Assembly (NCBI GenBank): GCA_020060545.1
Contig: JAGUZX010000131.1
Coordinates: 856-64,855, forward strand
From: Desulfovibrio sp.
GTDB taxonomy: Bacteria; Bacillota; Dethiobacteria; DTU022
Direction of reading: 5' to 3'
DNA: 64,000 nt
A model generated the notes under the pieces. The model did no database searches, was not told the origin of the DNA, and saw only the letters and a list, made by a program, of their open reading frames with translations. A program made the position numbers and the translations under genes. This document shows positions 26,600 to 55,668 of the stretch, piece by piece; position 1 is the stretch's first letter, and each line of letters starts with the position of its first letter.

Positions 26600-27224
26600 T
26601 TGCGCCGGGCGGGAGAAGCAACCGGCAGCGTTGCGGTCATGGCGGTCGCGACGCTCCAGCGCCGCGATTCCATCCGGCGGATAACCTTTTCGGCAGGAGA
26701 GATTTACTCGGGGCCGGCCCATCTAACGGCCTCCTTTGAACGCGAAATTATCCCAGGTTCCGTCTTTCCCCGGTTATTTCCAGGTTTAACATCACTATTC
26801 CTGCTTGCCCCTAGTCTTAAATTTTGGGTTGTCCCTCCGGCTGCTTGAGATGGCGGGAAAAGTGCTAGTTTATAACGAACGGTGCTTTTGGCGAAACATT
26901 TCCGGTCCCGGATTACAAGAGGAGAAGAGTTTTTGAAGCCTGGCCCGGGAAAACAAGAGAATGTTACCCCAACGCCCTCCCCCTGGCATTTAATCCGGCC
27001 TGCCGCCCCCCGGCGCACCCGTACCGTGAAAAAACGGGTTTTTGCTTCTTTTGAAGGAATATTCAAACCGGCGGCGAAAAGATAACCAATACCAGCCTGA
27101 TATATGGCACCGGAATGCGGGGGATTAACCCGGTTCCCAGACCTCTTCAAAACGCAACAGTAATGATTGGCAGTAGACTTTGAGCGGCGATTGGATTACT
27201 GTTAGTGGGGAAGGAGGGGGGATA

Positions 27225-28691
27225 TTGAACCTGAAGGCGCTGGTTAAAGAGAACGCCACCCTCAAGTCTGTATTAAACCATGCCGATGTGGCCGTGCATA
27301 TAGTGGACACGGACGGCATCACCCGGTTTTACAGCAAAGTAGCCGCGGAGATGGACGGCATGGAACCGGAAGAAGTGGTGGGCAAGCATATCCTGGAAGT
27401 TTATCCTTCGCTTACCATCGAATCCAGCTCGCTGCTGAAAGTCCTGGAAACGAAGAAAGCCGTTCTTAACCACCAGCAAACCGTGATCAACCATAAAGGC
27501 CGCGCTGTGACGATGTCGTATTCGACCTATCCCCTGTTTTACAATAACGAGATTGTCGGAGCCTGTGACATTTCACGCGATATCACCAGGATTAAAGAAC
27601 TTTCGGAGCGGCTGCTTGATTTGCAGGCGGAGCTGCTGGGGAAAAGAAACAGCGCCGCGCGCAAAGGCGCCGCCATCCAGGACAGCGTTCCTGTTGCCGG
27701 CGCCCGCTATACATTCAATGACCTGATCGGCCGTGATCAGAAGATGATTGATTTGAAAGTCCTCGGGCAGCGCGTGGCCCGGAGCGGTTCGCCGATTTTA
27801 GTTTACGGGGAAACCGGCACTGGCAAAGAGCTGCTGGTGCAGGCCATCCACAATGCCGGCCCGAACCGGCAAGGGCCGTTCATCGCCCAAAACTGCGCCG
27901 CCCTGCCGGCGACCCTTCTGGAAAGCATCCTTTTCGGCACGGTAAGAGGCAGTTTTACCGGTGCGGAGGACCGGCAGGGCCTCTTTGAAATGGCCGACGG
28001 GGGGATGCTTCTTTTTGACGAGATTAACTCCATGCCGGTCGAACTGCAGGGCAAACTGCTGCGCGTCTTGCAGGAAGGCGCTTTTCGCCGGGTTGGCGAT
28101 CACAGGCTCCGTAAAGTAAACGTCCGGGTGGTGGCCTCCACCAACGTCGACCCGCTGGCGGCGGTGAAGCAGCAGCTGCTGCGCCTGGACCTTTTCTACC
28201 GGCTGAATGTGATCTCGCTGCGGGTGCCGCCCCTGCGCGAACGCCCCGGCGATATCATGGTGCTGGCGGAACATTTTATTGACGAGTATAACCGGCTGTT
28301 CGGCATGCAAGTGCGCGGCTTCAGCGAAAAGGTGAAATATTTGTTTGAAAACCACTGCTGGCCGGGTAATGTGCGGGAGCTTAGAAACTGTATCGAGCAT
28401 GCCATGAATATTGTAGACGGGCCTGTGATTGAGGAAAGGTTCCTGCCGGCCCATGTCACCCAGGCCCAGGGGGGGGGATCCAGGCCCGCGGCAACCGCAG
28501 TGAGCCTGAGCAAGGGGCTCCCCGGGGCGATCAAGCAGCTGGAGAAAGAGGTGATTATGGAAACGCTGGAACAGTGTTCCTGGAACATTTCCCGGGCGGC
28601 CCGCCGCCTGAAGGTGCCGCGGCAAACCCTGCAATATAAACTGAGGATTTTAGGGGTTGCCGGCGGGGCGCTCAGGGAAGCGCCGCTGTAG
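27225..28691 (+). CDS. Sigma-54-dependent transcriptional activator (PAS sensor, AAA+ domain, Fis-type HTH)
   Basis: Walker A GETGTGKE, sigma-54 contact loop GSFTGA, Walker B LLFDEI, R-finger region, and C-terminal HTH NISRAARRLKVPRQTLQYKL. A TTG at 27225 follows GGAGGGGGG; the track start is 27180. Confidence 0.9.
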   Translation: MNLKALVKENATLKSVLNHADVAVHIVDTDGITRFYSKVAAEMDGMEPEEVVGKHILEVYPSLTIESSSLLKVLETKKAVLNHQQTVINHKGRAVTMSYSTYPLFYNNEIVGACDISRDITRIKELSERLLDLQAELLGKRNSAARKGAAIQDSVPVAGARYTFNDLIGRDQKMIDLKVLGQRVARSGSPILVYGETGTGKELLVQAIHNAGPNRQGPFIAQNCAALPATLLESILFGTVRGSFTGAEDRQGLFEMADGGMLLFDEINSMPVELQGKLLRVLQEGAFRRVGDHRLRKVNVRVVASTNVDPLAAVKQQLLRLDLFYRLNVISLRVPPLRERPGDIMVLAEHFIDEYNRLFGMQVRGFSEKVKYLFENHCWPGNVRELRNCIEHAMNIVDGPVIEERFLPAHVTQAQGGGSRPAATAVSLSKGLPGAIKQLEKEVIMETLEQCSWNISRAARRLKVPRQTLQYKLRILGVAGGALREAPL

Positions 28692-28810: not shown

Positions 28811-28826
28811 TGGTATGAAAATTGCA
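28811..28826 (+). promoter_or_regulatory. Sigma-54 (-24/-12) promoter upstream of nhaC-family gene
   Basis: TGGTATGAAAATTGCA has GG-N10-GC spacing and fits TGGCAC-N5-TTGC. The 15-mer is identical to the one at 32666. It lies 140 nt upstream of the GTG at 28968 and directly downstream of the activator gene. Confidence 0.7.
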
Positions 28827-28967: not shown

Positions 28968-30536
28968 GTGGAACCCGGTTTTCTTTCGATTTTACCGGCG
29001 CTGGTCGCGATCGTGCTGGCCATCGCCACCCGCCAGGTGATCCTTTCACTGTTCATCGCGGTCTGGCTCGGGGCGACATTTATCTACTCCTTCAACCCCG
29101 CGGTCGGGATTATGCGCACCCTGGATGAGTTTATCGTGGGCAGCGCGACGGACGGCTGGAACGCCGGTATTCTCATCTTTACCATGATCATCGCGGCCGC
29201 GATCGGGCTGGTCACCAGGTCCGGCGGGGCCCAGGCCATCGCCGAGGCGCTGAGCCGCAAGGCGAAGACCCCCCGGGCGGGGATGCTTTCCGCCTGGCTG
29301 ATGGGTTTAATCATCTTCTTCGACGATTACGGCAGCTGCCTGATCGCCGGCAACACTTCCCGGCCGATTACCGACAAGCTGAAGGTCTCCCGGGAGAAGC
29401 TCTCTTATATCGTCGACTCGACCGCAGCGCCGGTCGCGACCATCGCGGTTATTTCGACCTGGGTCGGGTACGAGATGGGCATGATCGCCGAAGGTTACGA
29501 CAAGATCGGTGTTGCCGTCAGCCCGTATATCGTCTTTCTGCAGACGATACCGTACCGCTTCTACAGCCTCTTCGCCCTGGCCATGGTCGTGATCCTTGCC
29601 ATTCTGATGCGTGATTTCGGGCCCATGTACCACGCCGAGGTCAGGGCGAGAACCACGGGCAAGCTGCTGCGGGACGGGGCGGTACCCCTTTCGGCCTCAG
29701 ACACAGCCGAACTGCAGGTCAAGGAAGGAACCCCTCTCCGCTGGATCAACTTTGTCCTGCCGCTCCTGGCGATCATCGTCAGCACCGTTATCGGCCTGTA
29801 TTATAACGGGGGAGGCGCGGAAGCCGGCGCCTTCCTGGATGCGATTGGAAATGCCGATGCCAGCGTGGTGCTGCTCTGGGCGTCCACGGCGGGCCTTGTG
29901 GTGGGGCTGATCCTGGTGCTGGCCCAGCGCATCCTGACCCTGAATGAGGCCATGGAGACGGTCATGAACGGGGCGAAGTCGGTGTTTACAGCGCTGGTGA
30001 TCCTGGTGCTGGCCTGGTCTCTCAGCGCCGTTTCCGGCGAGCTGGGAGCCGCCGAATACCTGGCTCCCATGGTCTCATCCGCCATCCCGATGTGGCTGGT
30101 GCCGTTTATGGTCTTTCTCGTGGCCTGCCTGGTTGCATTTGCCACCGGGACCTCCTGGGGCACGATGGGGATCCTGACCCCGATGGCGATTCCGATTGCT
30201 TACGCCTTCGGCGACGAGAGGATTCTGATCCCCACGGTGGCCGCGGTGCTGACCGGGGCGATCTTCGGGGACCACTGCTCGCCGATCTCCGACACGACGA
30301 TCCTCTCCTCCACCGGTGCCAGCTCCGACCATATCGACCACGTGCGCACCCAGCTACCCTATGCTATCGTTACCGCGGTGGTTGCGGGTATAATCGGTTT
30401 CATCCCGGCCGGTTTCGGGGTGCCCTGGTACGTTTCTTTTGTTATCGGTGTGGCGGCGCTGTATCTCATTGTCAAGTTCGTGGGCAAGAGCACGGAAGGC
30501 GTGTCGCTGCCGGTGGACAAAAAAGCAAAAGCATAA
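28968..30536 (+). CDS. NhaC-family Na+/H+ antiporter-type transporter (family also includes organic-ion and amino-acid antiporters)
   Basis: The GTG lies 9 nt after AAAGGAGG. MEPGFLSILPALVAIVLAIATRQV... 522 aa, about 12 TM helices. Confidence 0.8.
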   Translation: MEPGFLSILPALVAIVLAIATRQVILSLFIAVWLGATFIYSFNPAVGIMRTLDEFIVGSATDGWNAGILIFTMIIAAAIGLVTRSGGAQAIAEALSRKAKTPRAGMLSAWLMGLIIFFDDYGSCLIAGNTSRPITDKLKVSREKLSYIVDSTAAPVATIAVISTWVGYEMGMIAEGYDKIGVAVSPYIVFLQTIPYRFYSLFALAMVVILAILMRDFGPMYHAEVRARTTGKLLRDGAVPLSASDTAELQVKEGTPLRWINFVLPLLAIIVSTVIGLYYNGGGAEAGAFLDAIGNADASVVLLWASTAGLVVGLILVLAQRILTLNEAMETVMNGAKSVFTALVILVLAWSLSAVSGELGAAEYLAPMVSSAIPMWLVPFMVFLVACLVAFATGTSWGTMGILTPMAIPIAYAFGDERILIPTVAAVLTGAIFGDHCSPISDTTILSSTGASSDHIDHVRTQLPYAIVTAVVAGIIGFIPAGFGVPWYVSFVIGVAALYLIVKFVGKSTEGVSLPVDKKAKA

Positions 30537-30556: not shown

Positions 30557-30587
30557 AGGCGCCGGCAGATGCCGGCGCCTTTTTTTC
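30557..30587 (+). terminator. Strong intrinsic terminator after the NhaC-family gene
   Basis: AGGCGCCGGC-agat-GCCGGCGCCT followed by TTTTTTT. Confidence 0.85.
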
Positions 30588-30603
30588 GCCTCGTGCCTGT
30601 AAC

Positions 30604-30620
30604 TTGGCATTATATTTGCG
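30604..30620 (+). promoter_or_regulatory. Sigma-54 (-24/-12) promoter upstream of GNAT-kamA
   Basis: TTGGCATTATATTTGCG = TGGCAT-N5-TTGC, with exact GG-N10-GC spacing. It lies 17 nt after the terminator U-tract and 178 nt before the GNAT start. Confidence 0.7.
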
Positions 30621-30797: not shown

Positions 30798-31241
30798 ATG
30801 GAAATCCGGCAGGCCCATGCCGCTGATGAAAACGCTGTGTGCCGGTTGTGGGAAACGCTCCTCGCTTTTTACCGCAAGGAAACCGGCCGCCCGGTATTGC
30901 AGCGCAGCTTCCGGTATGCCGTCGGGCATCCCCGCCAGGTGCGCATTTACGTGGCGGTAATGGACGGCGCTATCGCGGGGACCGCCAGCCTGCACCTGGG
31001 CCATTACTCAACCTGGAACGACAACTGGTACGGGCACATCGAAGATGTTGTGGTGGCCCCGGAGTTCCGCCGCCGGGGGGTGGGGCTCCGCTTGATCCGG
31101 CACCTGATCGCTGTTGCAGAAGAGGAAGGACTGGCCAGGCTGGAGTTGAACACCCTGGCAACGAATCACGCCGCCCGCCGGCTGTACGAACAGCTCGGCT
31201 TTAAAACCGATTCCGTAGTTTACGAGCTGCCGCTCAAATGA
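30798..31241 (+). CDS. GNAT-family N-acetyltransferase (147 aa)
   Basis: The ATG follows GGGGAGGG. MEIRQAHAADENAVCRLWE..., motif A HIEDVVVAPEFRRRGVGLRLI, then ARRLYEQLGF. The TGA stop is embedded in the first TGAACTT palindrome. Confidence 0.8.
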   Translation: MEIRQAHAADENAVCRLWETLLAFYRKETGRPVLQRSFRYAVGHPRQVRIYVAVMDGAIAGTASLHLGHYSTWNDNWYGHIEDVVVAPEFRRRGVGLRLIRHLIAVAEEEGLARLELNTLATNHAARRLYEQLGFKTDSVVYELPLK

Positions 31242-31304
31242 ACTTAGGCGCCGGGCGCTTAAGTTCATTAACTTAAAAACTTGGGTGCCAGGCACCTAAG
31301 TTCA
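31237..31304. repeat. Palindromic element family P (TGAACT-N2-4-GGYGCC half-sites), locus A with two adjacent palindromes
   Basis: AATGAACTTAGGCGCC-G-GGCGCTTAAGTTCATT, then AACTTGGGTGCC-A-GGCACCTAAGTTCA. Confidence 0.85.
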
Positions 31305-31327
31305 CCAAGATGAAAGGGGTGTTCAAG

Positions 31328-32566
31328 ATGCGTGATTACCGGGAAATACCGCTCTGGAAAGATGTCTCGCCGGAAGAATGGAACGACTGGCACTGGCAGG
31401 TGGCGCACCGGATTACTTCCCTCGAGGAGTTGAAGCAGGTGATCCGGCTGACCGCCGGGGAAGAGGAAGGGGTCAGGCAGTGCCTGCGGACGCTGCGTAT
31501 GGCCATCACTCCCTACTACGCCACCCTGATCGATCCCGCCGATACGGGCTGCCCCGTCCGGCGGCAGGCGGTGCCCACCGCTCACGAGCTGAACATGGCT
31601 GCGTCAGACATGGCCGATCCCCTGCATGAGGATGTTGATTCGCCGGTGCCCGGGTTGACCCACCGTTACCCCGACCGGGTGCTGCTGCTCCTGACCGACC
31701 AGTGCTCCATGTACTGCCGCCACTGCACCCGGCGCCGTCTGGCGGGTGTGACCGACCGGCCCAGGAGCAGGGAGCAGATCGACCGGGCCGTCGAATACGT
31801 GCGCCGGACACCGGCGGTGCGCGACGTGGTTCTGTCGGGAGGCGACGGGCTGCTGCTGGCCGACGAGATCCTGGAGCATGTCCTGCAGCAGCTGCGGGCC
31901 GTCCCGCACGTGGAGATTATCCGCTTCGGCAGCCGCACTCCCGTGGTCTTGCCCCAGCGGATCACCCCGGAACTGTGCCGGATGCTGTCCCGTTATCACC
32001 CGGTCTATGTGAACGTCCATTTCAACCATCCCAAGGAGATCACCGCCGCCTCGGCGGAGGCATGCGCCCGCCTGGCGGACGCCGGTGTCCCCCTGGGGAA
32101 CCAGACCGTGCTCCTGGCCGGGATCAACGACTGCCCCCGGGTGCTGAAAGAGCTGTGCCAGGGCCTGCTGAAGATCAGGGTACGCCCTTATTACCTCTTC
32201 CAGTGCGACCTTTCCCAGGGGATCGAGCATTTCCGGACCCCGGTGGCGGCGGGGATCCAGGCGATCGAATTCCTGCGCGGGCACACCTCCGGGCTGGCCG
32301 TGCCCACTTATGCCATCGACGCTCCCGGCGGGGGAGGGAAGATCCCGGTCATGCCGCAGTATCTCATCTCCCAGTCCGGTTCGCGGGTGGTGCTGCGGAA
32401 CTTTGAAGGCGGGCTCTATACTTACACCGAACCGGGCCATTACGTCGATCCCGACCAGCCGTGCGCGCTTTGCGGCGGCAGGCACCAGGAAAACGGGATC
32501 GGGGTTGCCGGGATGTTAAACGGCCAGGTGGTGGCGATGGAGCCAGTGCTGAAAAAAGAGAAATAA
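31328..32566 (+). CDS. kamA: Lysine 2,3-aminomutase (radical SAM/PLP)
   Basis: Near-colinear with my recollection of Clostridium subterminale LAM: WNDWHWQV, LRMAITPYY, SPVPGLTHRYPDRVLLL, CSMYCRHCTRR, RIGSRTPVVLPQRIT, NHPKEIT, GNQTVLL. The lysine-binding Asp positions are kept (QCDLS and IDAPGGGGK). The ATG at 31328 follows AAAGGGGTG. Confidence 0.9.
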   Translation: MRDYREIPLWKDVSPEEWNDWHWQVAHRITSLEELKQVIRLTAGEEEGVRQCLRTLRMAITPYYATLIDPADTGCPVRRQAVPTAHELNMAASDMADPLHEDVDSPVPGLTHRYPDRVLLLLTDQCSMYCRHCTRRRLAGVTDRPRSREQIDRAVEYVRRTPAVRDVVLSGGDGLLLADEILEHVLQQLRAVPHVEIIRFGSRTPVVLPQRITPELCRMLSRYHPVYVNVHFNHPKEITAASAEACARLADAGVPLGNQTVLLAGINDCPRVLKELCQGLLKIRVRPYYLFQCDLSQGIEHFRTPVAAGIQAIEFLRGHTSGLAVPTYAIDAPGGGGKIPVMPQYLISQSGSRVVLRNFEGGLYTYTEPGHYVDPDQPCALCGGRHQENGIGVAGMLNGQVVAMEPVLKKEK

Positions 32567-32665: not shown

Positions 32666-32681
32666 TGGTATGAAAATTGCT
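32666..32681 (+). promoter_or_regulatory. Sigma-54 (-24/-12) promoter upstream of the first MttB-family gene
   Basis: TGGTATGAAAATTGCT, whose first 15 nt (TGGTATGAAAATTGC) are identical to the core at 28811. GG-N10-GC spacing. It lies 76 nt upstream of the start at 32757. Confidence 0.7.
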
Positions 32682-32756: not shown

Positions 32757-34226
32757 TTGATGTTTAAACGCAAGTTGAAGCCGGTGCGCTCGGTCCTGGA
32801 ATGCAAGGTTTTAAGCGAGCGGGACATCGTGAAGATCCACCAGGCCGCCCTGGAGGTGATGGAGGAAGCGGGCGTAAGGTTCCCGTCGGAGCGGGCACTG
32901 AACGTGCTGGAAGAGGCGGGATGCCCGGTGGATCGCCAAACCATGGTCGCCAAGCTGCCTTCCGGCCTGGTGATGGATTGCCTGCGCCGGGCCCCCTCCC
33001 AGTACCTGCTGGCCGGGCGGGATCCCAAAGATGATCTCTGGATCGACGATAAAACTTCCTATCTCTCCACCGACGGCTGCGCGGTTGATTTTTACGATAT
33101 CCGCACCGGCGAACTGCGCCGCTCCACCAAGCAGGATATCACCGACGCCTGCCGGGTGGCCGACTACCTGCCGGAGATTTCGTATATCTGGGGTCCTCCC
33201 GTCAGCGCGCAGGACGTCCCGGCGGCGGTGCGACCGCTGCACGAGATCGAGGCGAGCATGGATGGGACCACGATGCATATCCAGCCGGAGACGGTTATTT
33301 CCAGGACAATCGCCCGTTTTGCCCTGGAGATGGCCGCCGCGGTGGCCGGCGGCAAAGAGGCGCTGCGCAAGCGGCCGCTCTTTTCGTACATGCAGTGCGC
33401 CACCGATCCGCTCGGGCAGGACGGGGGGAGCCTGGAGGCGTCAATGGTGGCGGCGGAGTGGGGGATCCCCACCGGTTTCATGCCGATGCCGATGTCCTGC
33501 GCCACCGCTCCGGCCACTTTGGCCGGCAACCTGGTGGTGACGACGGTCGACGCGGTCAGCCCCCTGGTACTGATGCAGCTGGTTAACCCGGGCGCGCCGG
33601 TCTATTTCGCCGCGGCGCCCACGGCAATCGACCTGCAGACCGGCGGCTATACCGGCGGCGGGCCGGAAGACTTCCTCCTGGCGGCCGCCTTTAGCCAGAT
33701 CTGCCGCTTCTACCAGATCCCCCTGGCCATGGGCGCTTTCGCCACCGGGTCCAAGGAACCGGACTGGCAGGCGGCGGTGGATAACTGTTTTTCCGGCCTG
33801 TTGCCGGTCCTCACCCGGACCGCCATCCTCAACGGGGCGGGGACCTTGAACGGCTCCAAGATCTTCTCCCTGCAGGCTTTGATCATGGACGCCGAGATTT
33901 ACAGCATCATCGCGCGGGTTGCCGAAGGGATCGAGGTCAGCGACGAGACGCTGGCCGTGGAGCTGATCAAAAAAATCGGCCCTGGCGGCAACTTCCTCGC
34001 CGAGAAGCACACCCGGCAGCACATGAAAGAGATCTGGCGCCCCGTTGTTTACGACCGCAAGCCCTACGGGGCCTGGCTGGAGAGCGGCAAGCGAGGCGCT
34101 TTCGAAGAAGCCACTGAAAAAGCGCGCTGGATCCTGGAGAACCACGCGGTGCAGCCGCTCGAACCCGGGATCAAGCAAGAATTTTCCAGGATAATCAAGG
34201 CCGCTGAAAAAGAGCTGGCCGGTTAA
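32757..34226 (+). CDS. MttB-superfamily (trimethylamine methyltransferase family, COG5598) methyltransferase, non-pyrrolysine type; substrate unknown
   Basis: An uninterrupted 489-aa ORF of MttB length and architecture (..VLSERDIVKIHQAALEVMEEAGVRF.., C-terminal ..GPGGNFLAEKHTRQHM..). There is no in-frame TAG. A corrinoid protein gene follows 15 nt downstream. Confidence 0.8.
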   Translation: MMFKRKLKPVRSVLECKVLSERDIVKIHQAALEVMEEAGVRFPSERALNVLEEAGCPVDRQTMVAKLPSGLVMDCLRRAPSQYLLAGRDPKDDLWIDDKTSYLSTDGCAVDFYDIRTGELRRSTKQDITDACRVADYLPEISYIWGPPVSAQDVPAAVRPLHEIEASMDGTTMHIQPETVISRTIARFALEMAAAVAGGKEALRKRPLFSYMQCATDPLGQDGGSLEASMVAAEWGIPTGFMPMPMSCATAPATLAGNLVVTTVDAVSPLVLMQLVNPGAPVYFAAAPTAIDLQTGGYTGGGPEDFLLAAAFSQICRFYQIPLAMGAFATGSKEPDWQAAVDNCFSGLLPVLTRTAILNGAGTLNGSKIFSLQALIMDAEIYSIIARVAEGIEVSDETLAVELIKKIGPGGNFLAEKHTRQHMKEIWRPVVYDRKPYGAWLESGKRGAFEEATEKARWILENHAVQPLEPGIKQEFSRIIKAAEKELAG

Positions 34227-34241
34227 AGGGGGATCAAACAA

Positions 34242-34892
34242 ATGGAACAGGCGCAACTTTTTGCCAGGATGAAGTCAGCCGTACTGGAGGGGGAGATCGG
34301 CCTGGCCGCGGATCTGGCCCTTAACGCGCTGGAAATGGGCTTAAGCCCGCTCACCTGCATCGAGGAAGGCTACGTCCCCGGGATCAACGAGGTCGGCCGC
34401 CTCTTCGAAGCGGGCGAAATGTTTCTTCCCGAGCTGGTGGCGGCGGCCGAAGTGATGAAGGCGGCCCTCGCCGTCCTGGAGCCGGAGCTGCTGCGCCGGC
34501 AGGTATCGCGCGCGACCATGGGCAAGGTGGTGATCGGGACCATGTTCAACGATATCCACGATATCGGCAAGGATATGGTCGCCTCCATGCTTACCGCTTC
34601 GGGGTTCGACGTGGTCAACCTGGGGGTGAACGTACCCTGCGCCGCCTTCATCGACAAGGTCAGGGAGCTGCAGCCGGAGATCCTGGGGCTCTCGGCCTTG
34701 CTGACCACAACCATGCCCGAGCAAAAGACGGTCATCGAGGCGCTGCAGCGGGAAGGGCTGCGCGGGACGGTCAAAGTAATCGTCGGCGGGGCCCCGGTCA
34801 ACCGGCAGTGGGCCGACTCGATCGGCGCCGACGGCTTCGCCGAAAACGCCATCGAAGCGGTAAAGGTGGCCAAACGGCTGGTCGGCAAGTAA
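34242..34892 (+). CDS. Corrinoid (B12-binding) protein, MtbC/MttC/MtgC-like
   Basis: N-terminal helical cap (EEGYVPGINEVGRLFEAGEMFLPELV). B12-binding DxHxxG motif in GTMFNDIHDIGKDMV, then LSALLTTTM. Confidence 0.9.
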   Translation: MEQAQLFARMKSAVLEGEIGLAADLALNALEMGLSPLTCIEEGYVPGINEVGRLFEAGEMFLPELVAAAEVMKAALAVLEPELLRRQVSRATMGKVVIGTMFNDIHDIGKDMVASMLTASGFDVVNLGVNVPCAAFIDKVRELQPEILGLSALLTTTMPEQKTVIEALQREGLRGTVKVIVGGAPVNRQWADSIGADGFAENAIEAVKVAKRLVGK

Positions 34893-34964
34893 CATGCCGG
34901 GAGAGGCCGTAACCAATGCGCCGGGATTGCCAACATTTGCTTTGTGCTGGCTTGGGCCAAGTTT

Positions 34965-35033
34965 GGCACCTAGTGAACTGAAAAGTTCATTTGGTGCCTG
35001 GCACCAAATGAACTTTGGTTCCTTTGTTACTGG
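34965..35033. repeat. Palindromic element family P, locus C (contains a perfect 33-bp palindrome at 34983-35015)
   Basis: GGCACCTAGTGAACT-gaaa-AGTTCATTTGGTGCC-T-GGCACCAAATGAACTT, followed by a degenerate fourth arm. Confidence 0.85.
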
Positions 35034-35122
35034 CAAGGTAAGCCTCGCCCGCGGGCGGCGCATGCGCCGGCCCTACGGTTTAAGTGTAAAATACCCTGCA
35101 GCAAAAGGGAGGGTTTTAAGCG

Positions 35123-36604
35123 ATGGAGAAGTTCAGCTTCAAGGGCCAGCCGCGCCTGCGGCTCTTGTCCGACGAGCAGATCGAGCTGATGCACGAAAAA
35201 GCGCTCTATATCCTCGAGAACACCGGGGTCAAGTTCGAATCCGAGGAAGCGCTGAAAATTTTGAAAGATCACGGCGCGCAGGTTGACTTTACGCAAAAGA
35301 TCGCCCGGATCAAGCCGGAAATGGTGATCGACGCCGTGCAAAAGGCGCCCTCCGCCTTACGGCTGTACAACCGGGACGGGGAGCCCGCCGCTGATTTAAG
35401 CGGCAACAACGTCCACTTTGATCCCGGTTCGGCCGCGATCAAGTTCATGGAATCGGACGGCGTGACCGTCCGCCAGTCCAGGGCGGAAGACCTGGCCCGG
35501 ATCTCCAAAGTAAACGACGCCCTGGACAATATCGCCCTCCAGTCCACGGCTGTCGTGGCCTACGACGTGCCCAAGCTAATCGGCGACAGCTACCGGCTTT
35601 ACATTTTACTGAAGCACTCTCCCAAGGCGATCATCACTGGCGCCTTCAGCGTGCACGGCGTCGCCCACATGAGGGAGATGCTGGCCGCCGTGGCGGGGGG
35701 GTACGAGCGGCTGAGGGAGAAACCGGTGGCCGTTTTTGACATCTGCCCCTCCCCGCCGCTAAAATGGACGCACATCAGCGCGCAGAATATTATCGACTGC
35801 GCCCGTTTCGGCCTGCCCCTGGAGACGGTCTCCATGCCGATGCCCGGCGCCGCATCGCCGGTGACCCTTTCCGGGTCGATCCTGATCCATACCGCGGAGA
35901 CGCTGAGCGGCATCGTTCTGGCCCAATGTGTCAGCCCGGGCGCCCCGGTGGTGTACGGCGGGGCGCCGGTTCATTTTGACATGCGCTTCGGCACCACCCC
36001 TTTAAGCGCGATCGAGGCGACGATGATCGCTGCGGCCTACGCCCAGATGGGTAAATTTTACGGGATGCCCACCCACACCTACGCGGGCTTGAGCGACGCC
36101 AAGGTGGTCGACGCCCAGGCCGGCCTGGAAACGGGGATGAGCGGCGTCGTGGCCCAGCTGGCCGGGATTAACGTGATCTCTGGCGCCGGGGCCCTGGATT
36201 TCGTGAGCTGCATCAGCTTGGAGAAGCTGGTTATCGACAACGAGATCTGCGGGATGGCGCTGCGTCTGCACCGGGAAATCGACTGCTCGGCGGAAGCGAT
36301 GGCGGTTGAACTGGTGCGCGACCTCGGGCCGGGCGGGGACTACCTCGGCACGGAGCACACTTTCCGGTGGTTCAAGAAGGAGCCGTATATCACCTCCCCG
36401 GTAATCGACCGCCGCGATCGCGGCGGCTGGGTGGAGCAGGGCAGCAAGGATGCCTTTGCCCGCGCCAGGGAGAGAGTCTGTGAAATTGAGGGCGGCCACA
36501 GCCCCGTCCCTCTGGACGGGGAGCGGGCCGCCGCGCTGGACCGGGCCGCCTCACGTGTCATGGACGAACTGGGCATCGCCGCCCTCCCCCTCGGCCCCCG
36601 CTAG
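35123..36604 (+). CDS. MttB-superfamily methyltransferase, second diverged paralog, non-pyrrolysine; substrate unknown
   Basis: Uninterrupted 493-aa ORF (..LLSDEQIELMHEKALYILENTGVKF.., ..GPGGDYLGTEHTFRWF..). GGGAGGG acts as RBS. Confidence 0.8.
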   Translation: MEKFSFKGQPRLRLLSDEQIELMHEKALYILENTGVKFESEEALKILKDHGAQVDFTQKIARIKPEMVIDAVQKAPSALRLYNRDGEPAADLSGNNVHFDPGSAAIKFMESDGVTVRQSRAEDLARISKVNDALDNIALQSTAVVAYDVPKLIGDSYRLYILLKHSPKAIITGAFSVHGVAHMREMLAAVAGGYERLREKPVAVFDICPSPPLKWTHISAQNIIDCARFGLPLETVSMPMPGAASPVTLSGSILIHTAETLSGIVLAQCVSPGAPVVYGGAPVHFDMRFGTTPLSAIEATMIAAAYAQMGKFYGMPTHTYAGLSDAKVVDAQAGLETGMSGVVAQLAGINVISGAGALDFVSCISLEKLVIDNEICGMALRLHREIDCSAEAMAVELVRDLGPGGDYLGTEHTFRWFKKEPYITSPVIDRRDRGGWVEQGSKDAFARARERVCEIEGGHSPVPLDGERAAALDRAASRVMDELGIAALPLGPR

Positions 36605-36936
36605 ACTGGAAATTGGATGCAGGATGTTGGAAGTTGGCAAAGAGGTCGCATTTAAGCTGTAGAAGGGACGAGGTCTGCCACGCAAACCGGAGGCCAAAGG
36701 CCAGAGGCCGGAATCCGGAGGGCAAAGGCTTAGCGCAGGCGGAAAAGAAGGCTACGACCGCACAGATTAACGGAGCCGCACCACCGGCCGCCTCGTCTTT
36801 GAGGGGGAAGCGGGGCAGAGCTGAGTCACGGAGATGCGGCGGGAGTGGATTATATCGAATGATGCCGCACTCTTCCCGATTAAATAAGAGATCTCTTTTT
36901 CATCGATTATCGACCAAAGGAGGTTTTATCCGGAAG

Positions 36937-37569
36937 ATGGCCAATTTGGAAACCCTTAAAAAAGGGGTTATCGAGGGAGACGTGCAGCTGGTAATGGAAG
37001 AGACCAGGTCCTGCCTGGACAGCGGGATGGACGGCCTGGCAATTATCAACGAAGGCCTGGTGGCGGGGATGAACGTGGTCGGGCCGCGTTTTAAGGCCGG
37101 GGAGATGTTTGTCCCGGAGGTGCTGATGTCGGCGAAAGCGATGGCCGCGGGGGTAGAGCTGGTCAAATCCGTCCTCGTGGACACCGAGATACCGACCGCC
37201 GGAAAGGTGCTGATCGGCACGGTCAAAGGAGACCTGCACGATATCGGCAAGAACCTGGTCTCGATCATGCTGGAGAGCAGCGGGTTTGAGGTGGTGAACA
37301 TGGGCGTGGACATCCCCCCGGAGCAGTTTGCCGCGGCGATTCGGGAGCACAAGCCCCAGATCGTCGGCCTGTCGGCCCTCCTCACGACGACCATGCTGGC
37401 GATGAAGGATACGATCGACTACCTCCGGGCGGAAGGCCTGCGCGACTCGATCAAGGTGGTCATCGGCGGCGCGCCGGTGACGGCCGACTTCGCCAAAGAG
37501 ATCGGCGCCGACGGCTACGCCCCCGACGCCGGCGCCGCCGTCGAGCTGGCCCAAGGCCTCCTCGGTTAG
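36937..37569 (+). CDS. Corrinoid (B12-binding) protein, second copy
   Basis: The ATG at 36937 follows AAAGGAGG. MANLETLKKGVIEGD..., cap GMNVVGPRFKAGEMFVPEVL, DxHxxG in GTVKGDLHDIGKNLV, then LSALLTTTM. The track's 108-aa N-terminal extension is Arg/Gly-rich and is rejected. Confidence 0.9.
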   Translation: MANLETLKKGVIEGDVQLVMEETRSCLDSGMDGLAIINEGLVAGMNVVGPRFKAGEMFVPEVLMSAKAMAAGVELVKSVLVDTEIPTAGKVLIGTVKGDLHDIGKNLVSIMLESSGFEVVNMGVDIPPEQFAAAIREHKPQIVGLSALLTTTMLAMKDTIDYLRAEGLRDSIKVVIGGAPVTADFAKEIGADGYAPDAGAAVELAQGLLG

Positions 37570-37599
37570 GGGGTCAGGCCTTAAATTGCGTCATATGCA

Positions 37600-37626
37600 G
37601 CCCCGGATATAACCCGGGGCTTTTTT
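37600..37626 (+). terminator. Intrinsic terminator after the second corrinoid gene
   Basis: GCCCCGG-atataa-CCGGGGC followed by TTTTTT. Confidence 0.8.
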
Positions 37627-37649
37627 GATTATAATGAATTTAGGTGTTT

Positions 37650-37720
37650 GGTACCGGAATGAACTAATAAGTTCATTTGGTGCCTGGCACCGGAGTGAAC
37701 TTTTTAGTTCGCTTGGGGCC
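37650..37720. repeat. Palindromic element family P, locus D (71-bp composite of four half-sites)
   Basis: GGTACCGGAATGAACTaataAGTTCATTTGGTGCC-T-GGCACCGGAGTGAACTttttAGTTCGCTTGGGGCC. Same 35+1+35 architecture as locus G. Confidence 0.85.
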
Positions 37721-37745
37721 AGACTACGGTGAAGAGGTGGCTTAC

Positions 37746-38660
37746 TTGCCGGGTGATCAGGAAAAGCCGTTCTATCTGGCGATGAGCGAAGCGCAGCGGG
37801 CGGAACGGGTCCGGCGGCTGAAGGCGAGGCTGCGGCGGTGCACTATTTGCCCCAGGCGCTGCCGGGTCGACCGCCTGGCGGGCGAAGCGGGTAAGTGCGG
37901 CGCCGCCGATACGGTCATTGTCAGCAGCGCCGGCCCGCACTTTGGCGAAGAAAGCGTCCTGGTGGGAAGCGGCGGTTCGGGGACCATCTTTTTCGTCTAC
38001 TGCAACCTGGCCTGTGTGTTTTGCCAGAACTGGCCGATCAGCCGCGGGGTGGAGCGGGGCGAGACCGTTACAATTGAAGACCTGGCGGCGATGATGCTCC
38101 GGCTGCAGCGCCAGGGCTGCGAAAATATCAACCTGGTTACGCCCACGCCCTACCTTTACCAGATTGCCGCGGCGATCGACCGGGCCGCCGCGGGCGGCCT
38201 GCGCCTGCCCGTTGTTTACAACAGCAGCGGCTACGAGGCCGTGACGTCGCTCAGGCTGCTGGACGGATTTATCGATATCTACATGCCCGATGCCAAGTAC
38301 AGCAGTGATCTGGCTGGCGAGCTCTACTCGGGAGTGAGGGGCTACTATACCCACCTCCAGAAGGCGCTCAAGGAGATGCAGCGCCAGGTGGGAGACCTGG
38401 CGCTCGGCCGCCGCGGCACGGTTTACCGGGGCTTGCTGGTGCGCCACCTGGTCATGCCCGGCGGCGCCGCCGGCACCGCTGCGCTGGCCCGCTTTCTGAA
38501 AAAGGAAATCTCTCCCGCCTGCGCGGTTAACGTGATGGCCCAATACTACCCCGCGTACCGGGCCGGCGAGTTTCCCGCCCTGAACCGGCGTATTACCGCC
38601 GCGGAGTACCGCTCGGCCAGGGATGCCGTCCAAAAGGCCGGCTTGCGTTTGATCGATTAA
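37746..38660 (+). CDS. PflX-type (COG1313) radical SAM protein, cytoplasmic paralog
   Basis: CTICPRRCRVDR..GKCG plus the radical-SAM box CNLACVFCQNW. Colinear with the gene at 20707 but without the N-terminal extension. The start is uncertain: TTG 37746, ATG 37782 or the track's 37677. Confidence 0.8.
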   Translation: MPGDQEKPFYLAMSEAQRAERVRRLKARLRRCTICPRRCRVDRLAGEAGKCGAADTVIVSSAGPHFGEESVLVGSGGSGTIFFVYCNLACVFCQNWPISRGVERGETVTIEDLAAMMLRLQRQGCENINLVTPTPYLYQIAAAIDRAAAGGLRLPVVYNSSGYEAVTSLRLLDGFIDIYMPDAKYSSDLAGELYSGVRGYYTHLQKALKEMQRQVGDLALGRRGTVYRGLLVRHLVMPGGAAGTAALARFLKKEISPACAVNVMAQYYPAYRAGEFPALNRRITAAEYRSARDAVQKAGLRLID

Positions 38661-39936: not shown

Positions 39937-39974
39937 CTTAATAAATGGTGCCTGGCACCATTTATTAAGTTATT
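39932..39974. repeat. Palindromic element family P, locus E (43-bp perfect palindrome, AT-rich arm variant)
   Basis: AATAACTTAATAAATGGTGCC-T-GGCACCATTTATTAAGTTATT. The TAA stop of the preceding gene lies inside the left arm. It is the exact reverse complement of locus H. Confidence 0.9.
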
Positions 39975-52378: not shown

Positions 52379-52456
52379 AACTGTTCTTAGAGATTCGCCT
52401 TTTGCCGTCTAATGAAAGGGCAAGGGCAATGAAAAACCAAACCGGGGGGAAAAAAG

Positions 52457-52894
52457 GTGGAGCAGATCGGCAGAACGGCGATTATGTTCGCCCTCTCCCA
52501 GGGGACGATGGAAGAGCAGATCAGGCTGGAAGCGGCGGAAAACGGGTTTACCTTGCTTAAGGGGCGGGTCGGGTCGATGAGCAGTGAAAAAATATTTGCC
52601 GCCGTGGAAACGGCCGCGGCGCGGGAAAACCTGATCCGCAAAGAGCTCTACCGGGAAACCCACGCCCTCTATCACGCCGCCCTGGACGCATTTGCCGGTA
52701 TCTGCCGCGGCCAGGTGGGGCTGGGGAGCATGCTGCGCACCGTGGGTTTGATTTTCACCGTAGCCCGGGGGCCGCGCAGCGTTGAACAGCGCGAAGACGG
52801 CGACTGGATCGCCGTGGTCCTCTACGGGACGATCGGCGCCCCGGTGAAGGGGTTCGAGCATGAAACGATCGGCCTGGGGGTCAACCACCTCTAA
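52457..52894 (+). CDS. hutP: HutP, the histidine-responsive RNA-binding antiterminator
   Basis: Aligns along its whole length with B. subtilis HutP as I recall it: GRVGSMSSEKIFAAVETA, YRETHALYHAALDA, LGSMLRTVGL, GDWIAVVLYGTIGAPVKGFEHETIGLGVNHL. Confidence 0.9.
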   Translation: MEQIGRTAIMFALSQGTMEEQIRLEAAENGFTLLKGRVGSMSSEKIFAAVETAAARENLIRKELYRETHALYHAALDAFAGICRGQVGLGSMLRTVGLIFTVARGPRSVEQREDGDWIAVVLYGTIGAPVKGFEHETIGLGVNHL

Positions 52895-54841: not shown

Positions 54842-54864
54842 CTATTTTGGACAGGAGTGATCAA

Positions 54865-55668
54865 ATGCTGATTGTCGGAGAAAAAATCAACACCAGTCGT
54901 AAAACGGTCAAGGAAGCGGTGGAAAAAAGGGACGCCGCCTTTATCCGGGCTCTGGCCCGCCGCCAGCTGGAAGCGGGCGCGGACTACATCGATGTGAACT
55001 GTGGGACCTTTCTTCAAAATGAACCGGAGCTGCTGAGCTGGCTGGTACGGGAAGTGCAGGATGAACTGGACGGGCGCCCCCTGTGCATCGACAGCCCCAA
55101 CCCCGCCGCCGTGGAGGCCGCCCTGGAGGCGCACCGGGGCACGGCGATGCTGAACTCGATCAGCGGGGAAAAAGAGCGCTACGCGGCGCTGGAACCGCTG
55201 ATCGTGCGCCACGGCTGCAAGGTGGTCGTGCTCTGCATGGACGACGCCTCCGGGATCCCCCCCGATGCGGCCACCCGCTTCCAGATCGCCTCCCGGATCA
55301 TTGAAAGCCTGGTCCAAAAAGGGGTTAAACCCGATGATATCTACGTGGATCCCCTGATCCAGCCGATCAGCGTGGACACGAAAAACGGGCTTTCCGCCGC
55401 CGAGACGATCCGCCTGGTGCGGGAGCGCTACCCCGGTGTCCATGCCATCTGCGGCCTGAGCAACATCTCTTTCGGGCTGCCGGAGCGCAAGCTGTTGAAC
55501 CAGGCTTTTATGGTCGTCTGCGCCGCCTACGGGCTCGATGCCGTAATCCTCGACCCCGAGGACCAAAAGATGATGGCCTTGGTTCATGCCGTCGGAGCGC
55601 TCCTGAACCGTGACCCCTACTGCGGCGCCTACCTCAAGGCTTACCGCAGGGGTAGCCTTACTCCTTAG
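54865..55668 (+). CDS. Pterin-binding (DHPS-like TIM barrel) methyltetrahydrofolate:corrinoid methyltransferase family protein (MtgA/MtvA/AcsE-like)
   Basis: The ATG lies 4 nt after AGGAGTGA. MLIVGEKINTSRK...GADYIDVN...LCIDS...LNSIS...VDPLI...GLSNISFGLPER.LLN are the pterin-binding family blocks. Confidence 0.8.
   Translation: MLIVGEKINTSRKTVKEAVEKRDAAFIRALARRQLEAGADYIDVNCGTFLQNEPELLSWLVREVQDELDGRPLCIDSPNPAAVEAALEAHRGTAMLNSISGEKERYAALEPLIVRHGCKVVVLCMDDASGIPPDAATRFQIASRIIESLVQKGVKPDDIYVDPLIQPISVDTKNGLSAAETIRLVRERYPGVHAICGLSNISFGLPERKLLNQAFMVVCAAYGLDAVILDPEDQKMMALVHAVGALLNRDPYCGAYLKAYRRGSLTP

Follow-up and report, generated by a model that had tools for sequence, protein, structure and literature searches.

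Tandem non-pyrrolysine MttB methyltransferases in a predicted sigma-54 regulon, and their recurrent linkage to lysine 2,3-aminomutase

Background

The MttB superfamily comprises methyltransferases with and without pyrrolysine (Pyl). The former are represented by the CoM-linked MttB/MttC system of Methanosarcina barkeri (7XCL/7XCN), pyrrolysine itself being a lysine derivative whose synthesis involves a radical-SAM lysine mutase. [quoted passage not shown] Eubacterium limosum also relies on non-Pyl enzymes for the anaerobic conversion of quaternary amines to methyl-tetrahydrofolate (methyl-THF): MtpB, MtcB and MtyB, which work with MtqC/MtqA and share MtqC as their one corrinoid protein, and the MthB/MthC/MthA/MthK system. 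To our knowledge, the characterised non-Pyl enzymes remove one methyl group only and from quaternary amines only, and we know of no E. limosum MtpB, MtcB, MtyB or MthB gene reported to adjoin a lysine aminomutase. In a different context, lysine 2,3-aminomutase (LAM) and a GNAT N-acetyltransferase make up the classic two-gene route (AblAB) to the osmolyte N-epsilon-acetyl-beta-lysine.

Substrate binding in MtgB involves a glycine-betaine tetrad in which Y97 and F356 establish cation-pi contacts and R312 and H348 hold the carboxylate, and R312 is stated to be conserved in MtcB, MtpB, MthB and MtyB (PMC13080624). Substrates can also be modified prior to demethylation, as in the phosphorylation of choline by MthK for MthB (PMC12155760).

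Results and discussion

Gene content of the locus

The window analysed here is a 64,000-nt stretch of contig JAGUZX010000131.1, and the features of interest are collected in Table 1. An initial annotation had described two uninterrupted non-Pyl MttB genes on the plus strand, each with its own corrinoid protein, and had taken the two enzymes for old paralogues and not the product of a recent duplication, all of which is borne out by our analysis. MttB1 and MttB2 match the Pfam MTTB family (PF06253/COG5598) over their full length (E=3e-87, profile positions 24-498 of 500, and E=2.4e-91, positions 27-495, respectively), are 31% identical to each other and contain neither an in-frame UAG nor any other stop within the gene. 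Where M. barkeri has Pyl334, the codon is GCC (Ala329) in MttB1, with a small Ala invariant throughout its clade, and TTG (Leu323) in MttB2. The database copy of MttB1 starts at ATG 32760 and has 488 aa. CoP1 and CoP2, which are 46% identical, both contain PF02310 and PF02607 with an intact DxHxxG motif; they score slightly below the TIGR02370 cutoff of 215.3 (213.4 and 208.4), and their top-scoring NCBIfam models are MtgC-type 'exception' models, again under cutoffs. Gene placement in the initial annotation was correct except for the start of the second corrinoid protein: the open reading frame spans 36613-37569, but homology, ribosome-binding site and orthologues all begin at ATG 36937, 324 nt later. 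The four-gene unit it had delimited is real but was drawn too narrowly, since the region 5' of it also encodes an activator, a transporter of the NhaC type, a GNAT and, directly upstream, LAM.

Table 1. Features of the MttB/LAM locus and the candidate MT2 gene (positions within the window)
Feature	Position	Strand	Remarks
Sigma-54-dependent transcriptional activator	27180..28691	+	PAS sensor, AAA+ Sigma54_activat and HTH_8 domains (Pfam, NCBIfam)
P1, sigma-54-type -24/-12 promoter	28811..28825	+	TGGTATGAAAATTGC; 5' of transporter gene; pattern search and sequence
NhaC/Na_H_antiporter-family membrane transporter	28968..30536	+	522 aa; Pfam PF03553, E=4e-64
Intrinsic terminator after transporter gene	30557..30590	+	GC-rich 10-bp stem, then T-run
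P2, sigma-54-type promoter	30605..30619	+	TGGCATTATATTTGC; 5' of GNAT-LAM
Small GNAT N-acetyltransferase	30798..31241	+	147 aa; Pfam; start ATG 30798, ORF opens at 30693
Canonical LAM	31310..32566	+	Radical SAM and PLP dependent
Weak terminator preceding P3	32641-32655		
P3, sigma-54-type promoter	32666..32680	+	TGGTATGAAAATTGC; 77 nt 5' of MttB1
MttB1, non-Pyl MttB-superfamily methyltransferase	32757..34226	+	489 aa from TTG; LAM-linked 'clade 5'
CoP1, cognate corrinoid protein	34242..34892	+	216 aa; B12-binding and B12-binding_2 domains; DIHDIG at residue 104
Three-part palindromic REP-like repeat	34962..35016	.	GGCACC-N3-4-TGAACT units; in CoP1-MttB2 spacer
MttB2, non-Pyl MttB-superfamily methyltransferase	35123..36604	+	493 aa; 'clade 11'
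MttB2-CoP2 spacer	36605..36936	+	G-rich, non-coding, 332 nt
CoP2, second corrinoid protein	36937..37569	+	210 aa; true start ATG 36937; DLHDIG at residue 99
Intrinsic terminator closing the MttB1-CoP1-MttB2-CoP2 operon	37599..37628	+	
Pterin_bind protein, candidate MT2 (methylcorrinoid:THF methyltransferase)	54847..55668	+	hut operon

A predicted sigma-54 regulon

Judging from the sequence, MttB1-CoP1-MttB2-CoP2 is predicted to be a single sigma-54-dependent operon, extending from the promoter at 32666 to the terminator at 37599, and to constitute the last, distal operon of a sigma-54 regulon, with the activator, the transporter and GNAT-LAM upstream on the same strand. The adjacent PAS/sigma-54 activator, whose top curated NCBIfam match is a PrdR-like model scored under its cutoff, is the predicted driver of the transporter, GNAT-LAM and MttB/CoP units, and its orthologues adjoin the cluster in nine related loci. 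Both components of a sigma-54 regulon are found here, an enhancer-binding protein and -24/-12 promoters before its target operons: all three intergenic regions (28811, 30605 and 32666) harbour TGG-N9-TTGC motifs (-24 GG/-12 GC; pattern match only), and the 15-mer of P1 recurs identically at P3. Loose -24/-12 matches across the whole window occur in numbers at chance level, and the argument for sigma-54 promoters therefore rests on position and conservation. P1 has a counterpart in one related locus and P2 in three, that one included, and -24/-12 motifs occupy the P3-equivalent place 5' of MttB1 orthologues in seven. The relatives sharing the latter motif show 61-88% identity and include loci L082 and L084, in which divergent operons flank a sigma-54 activator. 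The NhaC-type transporter, with orthologues at the equivalent position in eight loci, is a candidate substrate importer.

Divergence from characterised methyltransferases

The top sequence match of both enzymes, and the top structure match of the MttB1 model, is Pyl-MttB of M. barkeri (262 bits for MttB1 and 253 bits for MttB2, each about 30% identical). The AF2 model of MttB1 (pLDDT 90.6) displays the eight barrel strands and TIM-barrel fold of MttB, with Foldseek TM-scores of 0.94 to 7xcl and 0.91 to 2qne/9yce. As opposed to the M. barkeri enzyme, MttB1 and MttB2 are bacterial, lack the UAG codon and are predicted to be THF-linked instead of CoM-linked, and neither reaches the equivalog cutoff of 525 for the Pyl-type TMA methyltransferase model TIGR02369 (450.5 and 428.7 bits). 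MttB2 nonetheless keeps the coding sequence just 3' of the Pyl codon, which results in a near-threshold PYLIS_3 match starting exactly at its TTG codon.

The superfamily, the barrel fold, the lack of pyrrolysine, the dedicated corrinoid protein gene and, presumably, the chemistry are shared with MtgB/MtgC. In a 213-sequence comparison, however, MttB1 and MttB2 cluster apart from MtgB, each in a clade of its own, and are only 28-32% identical to it. The initial annotation had named tight clustering with an enzyme such as MtgB as the outcome that would speak against its reading; since the two proteins do not group with MtgB, at about 30% identity and with the four betaine residues replaced, that outcome was not observed for this enzyme. 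The equivalents of Y97, R312, H348 and F356 are G, A, N and S in MttB1 and S103, H318, S353 and V361 in MttB2. These replacements are clade-wide: at the R312 position, members of the MttB1 clade have Ala (or Ser/Asn) and those of the MttB2 clade have His. Direct sequence comparison with characterised non-Pyl members covered MtgB; MtpB, MtcB, MtyB and MthB are set apart by description, as all four reportedly retain an R312 equivalent that anchors the carboxylate or phosphate, a position taken by Ala in MttB1 and His in MttB2. The locus also departs from MtpB, MtcB and MtyB in providing one corrinoid protein per MttB, and from MtgB/MtgC in its genomic partners: LAM, GNAT and the sigma-54 activator. 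The invariant residues specific to the MttB1 clade are acidic or aromatic (D106, W145, Y298, D305, W337) and, in the model, occupy the C-terminal ends of barrel strands or the loops just after them, an arrangement that would suit a substrate that is cationic but not anchored through a carboxylate.

LAM and GNAT

The LAM gene product scores about 627 bits against Clostridium subterminale LAM (2A5H) and retains the CxxxCxxC radical-SAM motif, the PLP lysine (K337) and the lysine-binding substrate residues R134, D293 and D330, all of these features being kept in 54/54 cluster-linked LAMs. Its score against the AblA-type equivalog TIGR03820 (583.8) exceeds the cutoff of 525.4, and the adjacency of LAM and GNAT is likewise shared with AblAB. 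[quoted passage not shown] The AblA-type score of LAM, the Na+/H+ antiporter family of the transporter, the MtgC 'exception' models heading the CoP1 and CoP2 matches and the soda-lake or brine metagenome origin of many relatives would all fit this scheme, which is harder to reconcile with the loss of all four glycine-betaine-binding residues of MtgB in both MttBs. The GNAT is, moreover, short (147 aa), finds its closest solved relatives, in a PDB search, among diamine, polyamine and thialysine N-acetyltransferases, and is not recognisably AblB-type, with no AblB-type model among its 25 best NCBIfam matches, all of them far under cutoffs. Unlike AblAB, LAM-GNAT is here under a catabolic-style sigma-54 activator and embedded among corrinoid methyltransferase genes; with one activator and three matching promoters, synthesis and breakdown of osmolytes would be switched on together.

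Linkage of MttB and LAM across phyla

The pairing of MttB with LAM recurs in three bacterial phyla. Among loci of at least 12 kb, LAM is found near MttB in 8/8 Bacillota and 32/34 Actinomycetota; it is present as well in some Desulfobacterota-type loci (L015, L085) and in none of the 14 Chloroflexota loci. The GNAT gene adjoins LAM or MttB1 in Bacillota loci as well as in L082, L084 and L090, the last of which carries NhaC-GNAT-LAM immediately 5' of its MttB2 orthologue. The Actinomycetota order is three to four MttB genes, LAM, RamA and EamA, with RamA immediately after LAM in 35 loci. Soil and peat Actinomycetota loci lack GNAT, and downstream of their LAM there are often aminotransferase and BKACE genes. 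Other phyla present class-III aminotransferase, BKACE, lysine 5,6-aminomutase and basic-amino-acid ABC transporter genes beside MttB clades; L086 holds kamD, kamE and a BKACE gene (kce) within about 9 kb of its MttB pair, and L085, L015 and L016 a polar-amino-acid ABC system with an M20 peptidase. Both the catabolic layout of the GNAT-less Actinomycetota, where LAM separates the MttB genes from RamA, and the company of kamDE and kce in L086 argue further against a mere sharing of osmolyte functions.

The best indication of the substrate comes from the conserved LAM context, which suggests a lysine-derived methylamine. That context points away from glycine betaine, proline betaine, carnitine and gamma-butyrobetaine, the substrates listed in the initial annotation. 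Our tentative proposal is a corrinoid-dependent demethylation of N-methylated lysine (e.g. trimethyllysine) that would feed methyl-THF and lysine/β-lysine catabolism, with the identity of the substrate inferred. Each MttB would demethylate an N-methylated, cationic amine and load the methyl onto the Co(I) corrinoid bound to its partner CoP; an MT2 encoded elsewhere, possibly at 54847-55668, would pass it on from methyl-Co(III) to THF, and oxidised corrinoid would be re-reduced by a RamA-type activase from outside the window. The substrate would be neither glycine betaine nor a further carboxylate-anchored betaine; N-epsilon-tri-, di- or mono-methyl-L-lysine, or the beta-lysine isomers, appear likeliest because the MttB clades are tied to canonical LAM and, elsewhere, to lysine-type neighbour genes. 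The demethylated product would be lysine, which LAM would convert to beta-lysine, perhaps followed by GNAT acetylation or further degradation, the order of these steps and the part of GNAT being conjectural. The two MttB/CoP pairs might serve two methylation states or two related lysine derivatives. Given the single-methyl, quaternary-only chemistry of the characterised enzymes, taking trimethyllysine to lysine would therefore require chemistry new to the family. Our literature search retrieved no paper linking MttB proteins to trimethyllysine, and broader trimethyllysine searches added nothing; MttB and aminomutase are co-mentioned in a single paper, and there only as separate sigma-54-regulated gene groups.

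The enzymes might also act in a different order, an arrangement we consider improbable. LAM (with aminotransferase/BKACE or GNAT) could work first on the still-methylated compound, for instance turning trimethyllysine into beta-trimethyllysine and then a gamma-butyrobetaine-like product, so that the betaine demethylated by the MttBs would be derived from beta-lysine or shortened in its chain; another option is that GNAT acetylates the free amino group and thereby creates the real MttB substrate. MthK, an in-cluster accessory enzyme that tailors the substrate of MthB (PMC12155760), offers a precedent for GNAT or LAM acting likewise, and the GNAT gene immediately 5' of the MttB1 orthologue in L082 and L084, the M20 deacylase-like genes of Desulfobacterota clusters and the serial arrangement of LAM, aminotransferase and BKACE in Actinomycetota are in line with it. 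Yet all cluster LAMs retain D293 and D330, the residues that bind lysine by its free epsilon-ammonium in 2A5H, and this speaks for LAM acting on unmethylated lysine; in addition, MttB1 lacks the carboxylate-anchoring Arg of the betaine enzymes.

A further scheme, extremely improbable in our view, would have LAM, with or without GNAT, supply a catalytic helper for these MttB enzymes, a small molecule or protein modification derived from beta-lysine that stands in for pyrrolysine, the methyl donor being a simple methylamine. The tight cross-phylum LAM-MttB-RamA linkage is its only support, together with the lysine origin of pyrrolysine and the invariant Ala at the Pyl position of the MttB1 clade. 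We know of no such helper; no ligase or PylC/PylD-like gene was seen in any cluster, LAM is of the canonical catabolic type, and the clusters are accompanied by amino-acid-like transporters and lysine-catabolic genes.

Several observations count against the methyl-lysine reading. Desulfobacterota clusters contain a single MttB only, Chloroflexota loci have no LAM, and the downstream lysine-fermentation genes kamDE and kce are absent from the window. The osmolyte route through LAM and GNAT, the MtgC-type top scores of the corrinoid proteins and the saline or high-ammonia origins of the relatives, several of which were sampled from soda-lake, brine or high-ammonia digester, count in the same direction.

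Accessory functions and spacers

MT2 and RamA are both missing from the cluster, as first annotated: tblastn detected no RACo/RamA homologue in the whole window, and no MT2 (Pterin_bind) gene lies between positions 27 and 40 kb. The only MT2-like gene had been assigned to the hut operon, and the sole Pterin_bind gene in the window is indeed located there, flanked by hutU and the gene for formimino-THF cyclodeaminase. The orthologous clusters include an MT2 of their own in L082, L084 and L087, and the protein from the window shares 54% identity with that of L082.

The MttB2-CoP2 spacer, at 332 nt, compares with roughly 60-145 nt in the relatives that keep CoP2; it has no Rfam match, and its fold is unremarkable (z = -1.1). 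The CoP1-MttB2 spacer of the relatives measures about 35 nt and lacks the REP-like element, further copies of which are found in the window at 37640-37694 and 60625-60662.

Organization of the MttB cluster

The initial annotation had drawn the genes for the two non-pyrrolysine MttB-family methyltransferases (MttB1 and MttB2) and their corrinoid proteins (CoP1 and CoP2) as a whole unit. The four genes are real, but judging from the sequence they form only the distal operon of a longer arrangement, which we read as one regulon of three transcription units. Upstream lie genes for a sigma-54 enhancer-binding protein, an NhaC-type transporter, a small N-acetyltransferase (GNAT) and a lysine 2,3-aminomutase (LAM), and pattern matching places one sigma-54-type -24/-12 motif in each of the three intergenic regions. 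Since this loose pattern occurs at chance frequency across the window, the argument for sigma-54 regulation rests on motif position and conservation. Motifs are also found just 5' of the MttB1 orthologues in five related loci (L001, L002, L004, L008 and L013); in the distant clusters L082 and L084, each with a sigma-54 activator of its own, they precede both divergent operons. A sigma-54 promoter before MttB2 was rejected, as the TGGCACC repeats at this site are part of a recurring palindrome and have no -12 TTGC. Also rejected was the membership of the downstream radical-SAM gene, which follows a strong terminator and adjoins the cluster in none of the relatives. For the 5' regions and the two long spacers, the idea of a riboswitch or leader RNA was likewise discarded, the Rfam scan of the whole window being empty at gathering thresholds and yielding only chance-level matches at E<=1.

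Features of the MttB cluster and its surroundings, in window positions
Feature	Position	Strand	Description
Low-G+C segment	6001-10000		G+C 0.44
Radical-SAM gene	20707-21801
Sigma-54 enhancer-binding protein	27180-28691	+	PAS sensor
-24/-12 motif	28811		TGGTATGAAAATTGC; before transporter gene
NhaC/Na_H_antiporter-family transporter	28968-30536	+
Intrinsic terminator	30557
-24/-12 motif	30605		TGGCATTATATTTGC; before GNAT-LAM
GNAT	30798-31241	+	147 aa
LAM	31310-32566	+
Intrinsic terminator	32641		weak
-24/-12 motif	32666		TGGTATGAAAATTGC, identical to 28811 site; before MttB1
MttB1	32757-34226	+	489 aa from TTG; database copy begins ATG 32760; Pfam MTTB end to end, E=3e-87
CoP1	34242-34892	+	216 aa; B12-binding and B12-binding_2 domains; DIHDIG
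MttB2	35123-36604	+	493 aa; Pfam MTTB end to end, E=2e-91
PYLIS_3 match	36089-36188	+	36.5 bits; gathering score 38
MttB2-CoP2 spacer	36605-36936		332 nt, G-rich
CoP2	36937-37569	+	210 aa from ATG; B12-binding and B12-binding_2 domains; DLHDIG
Intrinsic terminator	37599
Radical-SAM gene	37677-38660		mechanical TTG start
Low-G+C segment	40001-42000		G+C 0.52
hut genes	50825-59066
Pterin_bind gene	54847-55668		between hutU and formimino-THF cyclodeaminase gene
Palindromic repeats	34962-35016, 37640-37694, 60625-60662		three-part
Palindromic repeat fragments	31284-31296, 39946-39960, 63632-63646

Most of what had been proposed for the four genes is borne out. Both MttB genes are of the non-pyrrolysine type: they match the Pfam family over their full length, contain no internal stop and carry Ala329 (GCC, MttB1) and Leu323 (TTG, MttB2) at the pyrrolysine position of the M. 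barkeri enzyme. Each has a corrinoid protein of its own, with the expected domains and motif, and the paralogues are clearly diverged (31% identity between the MttBs and 46% between the corrinoid proteins). The second corrinoid gene is present, but the reading frame originally given for it (36613-37569) is too long; homology, the ribosome-binding site and orthologues all place its start at ATG 36937. The mechanical frame reaches 318 aa because the spacer upstream stays open in frame with CoP2. This spacer has no counterpart in relatives, in which the gap measures ~60-145 nt or CoP2 is absent (L002, L004); it matches no Rfam family, is not repeated at any other place in the window and folds with ordinary energy (z = -1.1). 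Within MttB2, a match to Rfam PYLIS_3, the mttB pyrrolysine insertion sequence, was rejected as an RNA element. It reflects coding homology to pyrrolysine-type mttB instead, because it starts exactly at the pyrrolysine-equivalent codon and its bases encode the conserved peptide L-SDAKV-D-QAG-E. That TTG codon is one base change from UAG.

In MttB-family systems the methyltransferase methylates Co(I) of its corrinoid partner, a methylcorrinoid:THF methyltransferase (MT2) moves the methyl group to THF and a reductive activase (RamA/RACo) re-reduces oxidised corrinoid. The reported local absence of MT2 and activase holds: tblastn finds no RamA/RACo homologue anywhere in the window, the sole Pterin_bind gene of which lies in the hut operon, and in three close relatives (L002, L004 and L017) the flanking sequence contains no RamA or MT2, just PAP2, Uma2, oxidoreductase and AMP-binding genes. 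The hut-operon protein is the obvious MT2 candidate, as it is 54% identical to the MT2 within the orthologous MttB cluster of L082. The hut genes enclosing it, for urocanase and then formimino-THF cyclodeaminase, glutamate formiminotransferase and imidazolonepropionase, all serve THF-linked steps.

Conservation of the cluster and its linkage to lysine 2,3-aminomutase

When one genome per species was scanned, MttB1 relatives at 51-88% identity turned up in 80 loci, and ten further loci were added through exact-protein look-ups. The 213 MttB sequences from these loci were clustered with the glycine betaine methyltransferase MtgB (9YCE) and pyrrolysine-type MttB (7XCL) as the two characterised references, by average linkage on corrected distances and in a neighbour-joining tree without bootstrapping. 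MttB1 falls in clade 5 (98 members) and MttB2 in clade 11 (19 members); identity is ~30% between the two, as it is between either one and MtgB or pyrrolysine-type MttB. The pair recurs in close relatives (L001-L019), in a Halanaerobiales MAG (L014), in the distant MAGs L082 and L084, and in L086 and L087. On sequence grounds, this recurrence in close and distant loci marks the two diverged MttBs as an old, conserved module.

A LAM gene accompanies the methyltransferases in 14/18 fetched loci from Bacillota, 34/45 from Actinomycetota/Thermoleophilia, 1/2 of Desulfobacterota type (plus L085) and 0/14 from Chloroflexota; among loci of at least 12 kb, the corresponding figures are 8/8, 32/34, 1/2 and 0/8. 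The conservation of this linkage across phyla excludes chance adjacency of LAM and MttB genes. The linkage is also the sole support for the notion that a LAM-derived cofactor stands in for pyrrolysine, which we regard as highly improbable. Actinomycetota clusters are ordered MttB(8)-MttB(5)-MttB(8)-MttB(3)-LAM-RamA-EamA (numbers denoting clades), with a full-length RamA confirmed in three loci by Pfam and in 35 by tblastn; the LAM gene thus separates the MttB genes from that of their activase. In this phylum, LAM is followed by class-III aminotransferase and BKACE genes; L086 has lysine 5,6-aminomutase genes (kamD, kamE) and a BKACE gene within ~9 kb, Desulfobacterota have a polar-amino-acid ABC system and an M20 peptidase, and L082 and L084 have a LIV-type ABC system. 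By their annotated families, these recurrent neighbours point to a basic amino acid as the theme. The lysine fermentation genes kamDE and kce are absent from the window itself.

The window LAM is canonical, scoring 627 bits against the C. subterminale enzyme (2A5H) and above the curated TIGR03820 cutoff, and it retains the radical-SAM cysteines, the PLP lysine K337 and the substrate residues R134, D293 and D330; lysine-binding residues are kept in 54/54 cluster-linked LAMs. The nearest solved relatives of the GNAT are diamine/polyamine and thialysine N-epsilon-acetyltransferases, at an E of ~1e-12 to 1e-7, which counts as weak evidence.

Several loci depart from the common layout. L009, L017 and L019 have two LAM copies per cluster, one 5' of the sigma-54 activator and one after GNAT. 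L090, a MAG related to 'delta proteobacterium ML8_D', contains the block NhaC-GNAT-LAM followed directly by an MttB2 orthologue (6305-11497). Just upstream (3366-5418), a dimethylamine methyltransferase of pyrrolysine type is encoded together with its own corrinoid protein; the gene is split into two calls, the pattern that an amber codon would give. Pyrrolysine-dependent and pyrrolysine-free methylamine systems hence stand side by side, next to LAM. In L088 (6994-21482, Desulfitibacter sp. BRH_c19) three MttB genes stand in tandem under a PucR-type regulator, the third being of the MttB2 clade; after them come genes for an Opp-type peptide ABC transporter and a large Peptidase_C25-like protein, then a fourth MttB, with no LAM within 10 kb. 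This layout may hint at methylated peptides as a substrate source.

Divergence of the substrate-binding site

In MtgB, glycine betaine is held by Y97 and F356 through cation-pi contacts and by R312 and H348 at the carboxylate (PMC13080624; 9YCE chain numbering is this numbering minus 2); according to the same 2026 study, R312 is also retained by the E. limosum enzymes MtcB, MtpB, MthB and MtyB. At Y97, R312, H348 and F356, respectively, MttB1 has Gly, Ala, Asn and Ser, and MttB2 has Ser103, His318, Ser353 and Val361; all four replacements hold across both clades. Tight clustering with MtgB, an outcome the initial annotation had allowed for, is hence not seen: the proteins fall in separate clades at ~30% identity and have replaced the glycine betaine residues. 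Both score slightly higher against pyrrolysine-type MttB than against MtgB, but fall under the cutoff of the pyrrolysine-type equivalog TIGR02369.

The AF2 model of MttB1 (pLDDT 90.6) is an MttB-type TIM barrel, with a TM score of 0.94 to 7XCL and 0.91 to MtgB. The residues that are invariant specifically in the MttB1 clade, D93, D97, D106, W145, Y298, D305 and W337, are all acidic or aromatic. Placed by secondary structure, D106, W145, Y298, D305, A329 and W337 lie at C-terminal ends of barrel strands or in the following loops, the substrate-binding region of this fold. These modelled residue positions suggest that in MttB1 acidic and aromatic side chains hold a cationic substrate, rather than Arg clamping a carboxylate.

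A candidate pathway for methylated lysines

LAM and GNAT together are the signature of the N-epsilon-acetyl-beta-lysine pathway, saline or alkaline samples are the source of many relatives and the corrinoid proteins are similar to MtgC models, all of which would suit an osmolyte island with betaine demethylation beside an independent AblAB-like module. We consider this arrangement unlikely. The MttBs lack the glycine betaine residues, the GNAT is not recognisably of AblB type, and a single activator would co-induce osmolyte synthesis and breakdown. Moreover, Actinomycetota lack the GNAT, place LAM between the MttB genes and RamA and have catabolic genes next, which is not an osmolyte-synthesis layout.

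We infer instead that the methyl group may come from an N-methylated lysine; the simplest candidates are N-epsilon-trimethyl-L-lysine and the beta-isomers or partly demethylated forms of it. The compound would enter through the NhaC-type transporter and be demethylated to lysine, with MT2 (the hut-operon candidate) and RamA supplied from outside the cluster. LAM would turn lysine into beta-lysine, which GNAT would then acetylate, or which would be degraded further; in other lineages, degradation may follow aminotransferase/BKACE or KamDE routes. The two MttB/CoP pairs might take two methylation states or two related compounds. The absence of LAM near the Chloroflexota members weakens the proposal. 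In the MthK/MthB system, an accessory enzyme tailors the substrate ahead of demethylation (PMC12155760), and this precedent leaves room for LAM or GNAT to work first on the still-methylated compound; the conserved D293 and D330 of LAM disfavour that order, which seems quite improbable.

Protein decay, wherever it occurs, sets methyl-lysines free; from trimethyllysine, carnitine and gut-derived trimethylated metabolites are made. To our knowledge, known non-pyrrolysine MttBs remove one methyl group only, from quaternary amines only, a further weakness of the proposal; every assigned non-pyrrolysine member uses an acid-bearing quaternary amine, and tertiary and secondary amine demethylation has so far been thought to require pyrrolysine. 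It is a doubtful but possible prospect that the cluster represents the first corrinoid-dependent, oxygen-independent stripping of free trimethyllysine to lysine, with separate pyrrolysine-free MttB paralogues for each methylation state, tertiary and secondary amines included. Such a pathway would be spread widely among anaerobic Bacillota, Actinomycetota of soil and peat, and Desulfobacterota, and would link protein-derived methyl-lysine to methyl-THF and lysine fermentation. The system could show whether pyrrolysine-free MttB enzymes act on non-quaternary amines. If the methyl-lysine proposal is true, it would provide a new anaerobic sink for methyl-lysines and trimethyllysine and offer acetogens and syntrophs a new methylotrophic substrate.

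The corrinoid methyltransferase system is of known type; its two conserved clades are uncharacterised and their coupling to lysine 2,3-aminomutase is undescribed. The non-pyrrolysine MttB superfamily is very large, and most of it, as far as we know, lacks an assigned substrate. Six members of the MttB superfamily have one (PMC12155760). Database homologues of both MttBs bear generic names only. Full-text literature searches returned no paper linking MttB proteins to trimethyllysine; those on MttB and aminomutase together gave one paper, in which the two just appear as separate sigma-54-regulated gene groups, those on trimethyllysine more broadly gave unrelated or already-known MttB papers only, and those on beta-lysine and kamA gave compatible-solute and methanogen papers only. 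The analysis thus turns an anonymous paralogue pair, belonging to two conserved clades that lack the substrate anchor of the known enzymes and are tied to LAM in three phyla, into a specific, testable substrate hypothesis, with methyl-lysines as methyl donors.

Other features of the window

A three-part palindromic repeat, with GGCACC-N3-4-TGAACT units in direct, inverted and direct orientation, occurs at three intergenic positions ~55-110 nt upstream of + strand genes (MttB2, the radical-SAM gene past the cluster terminator and a PrcB_C/Gmad2 gene), with fragments elsewhere; its core 14-mer has 6 matches against 0.7 expected. It is missing from the same CoP1-MttB2 spacer in relatives and may act as an operator or a terminator hairpin, or belong to the REP-like elements. 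As the mechanical TTG start of the radical-SAM gene just past the terminator overlaps the repeat, its true start is probably further downstream. The product is 50% identical to a paralogue encoded at the 5' side of the window, the gene for which adjoins another radical-SAM gene and one for an 842-aa protein with a spermine-synthase-like domain. Finally, the two low-G+C segments, in surroundings of ~0.60-0.64, may have been acquired.
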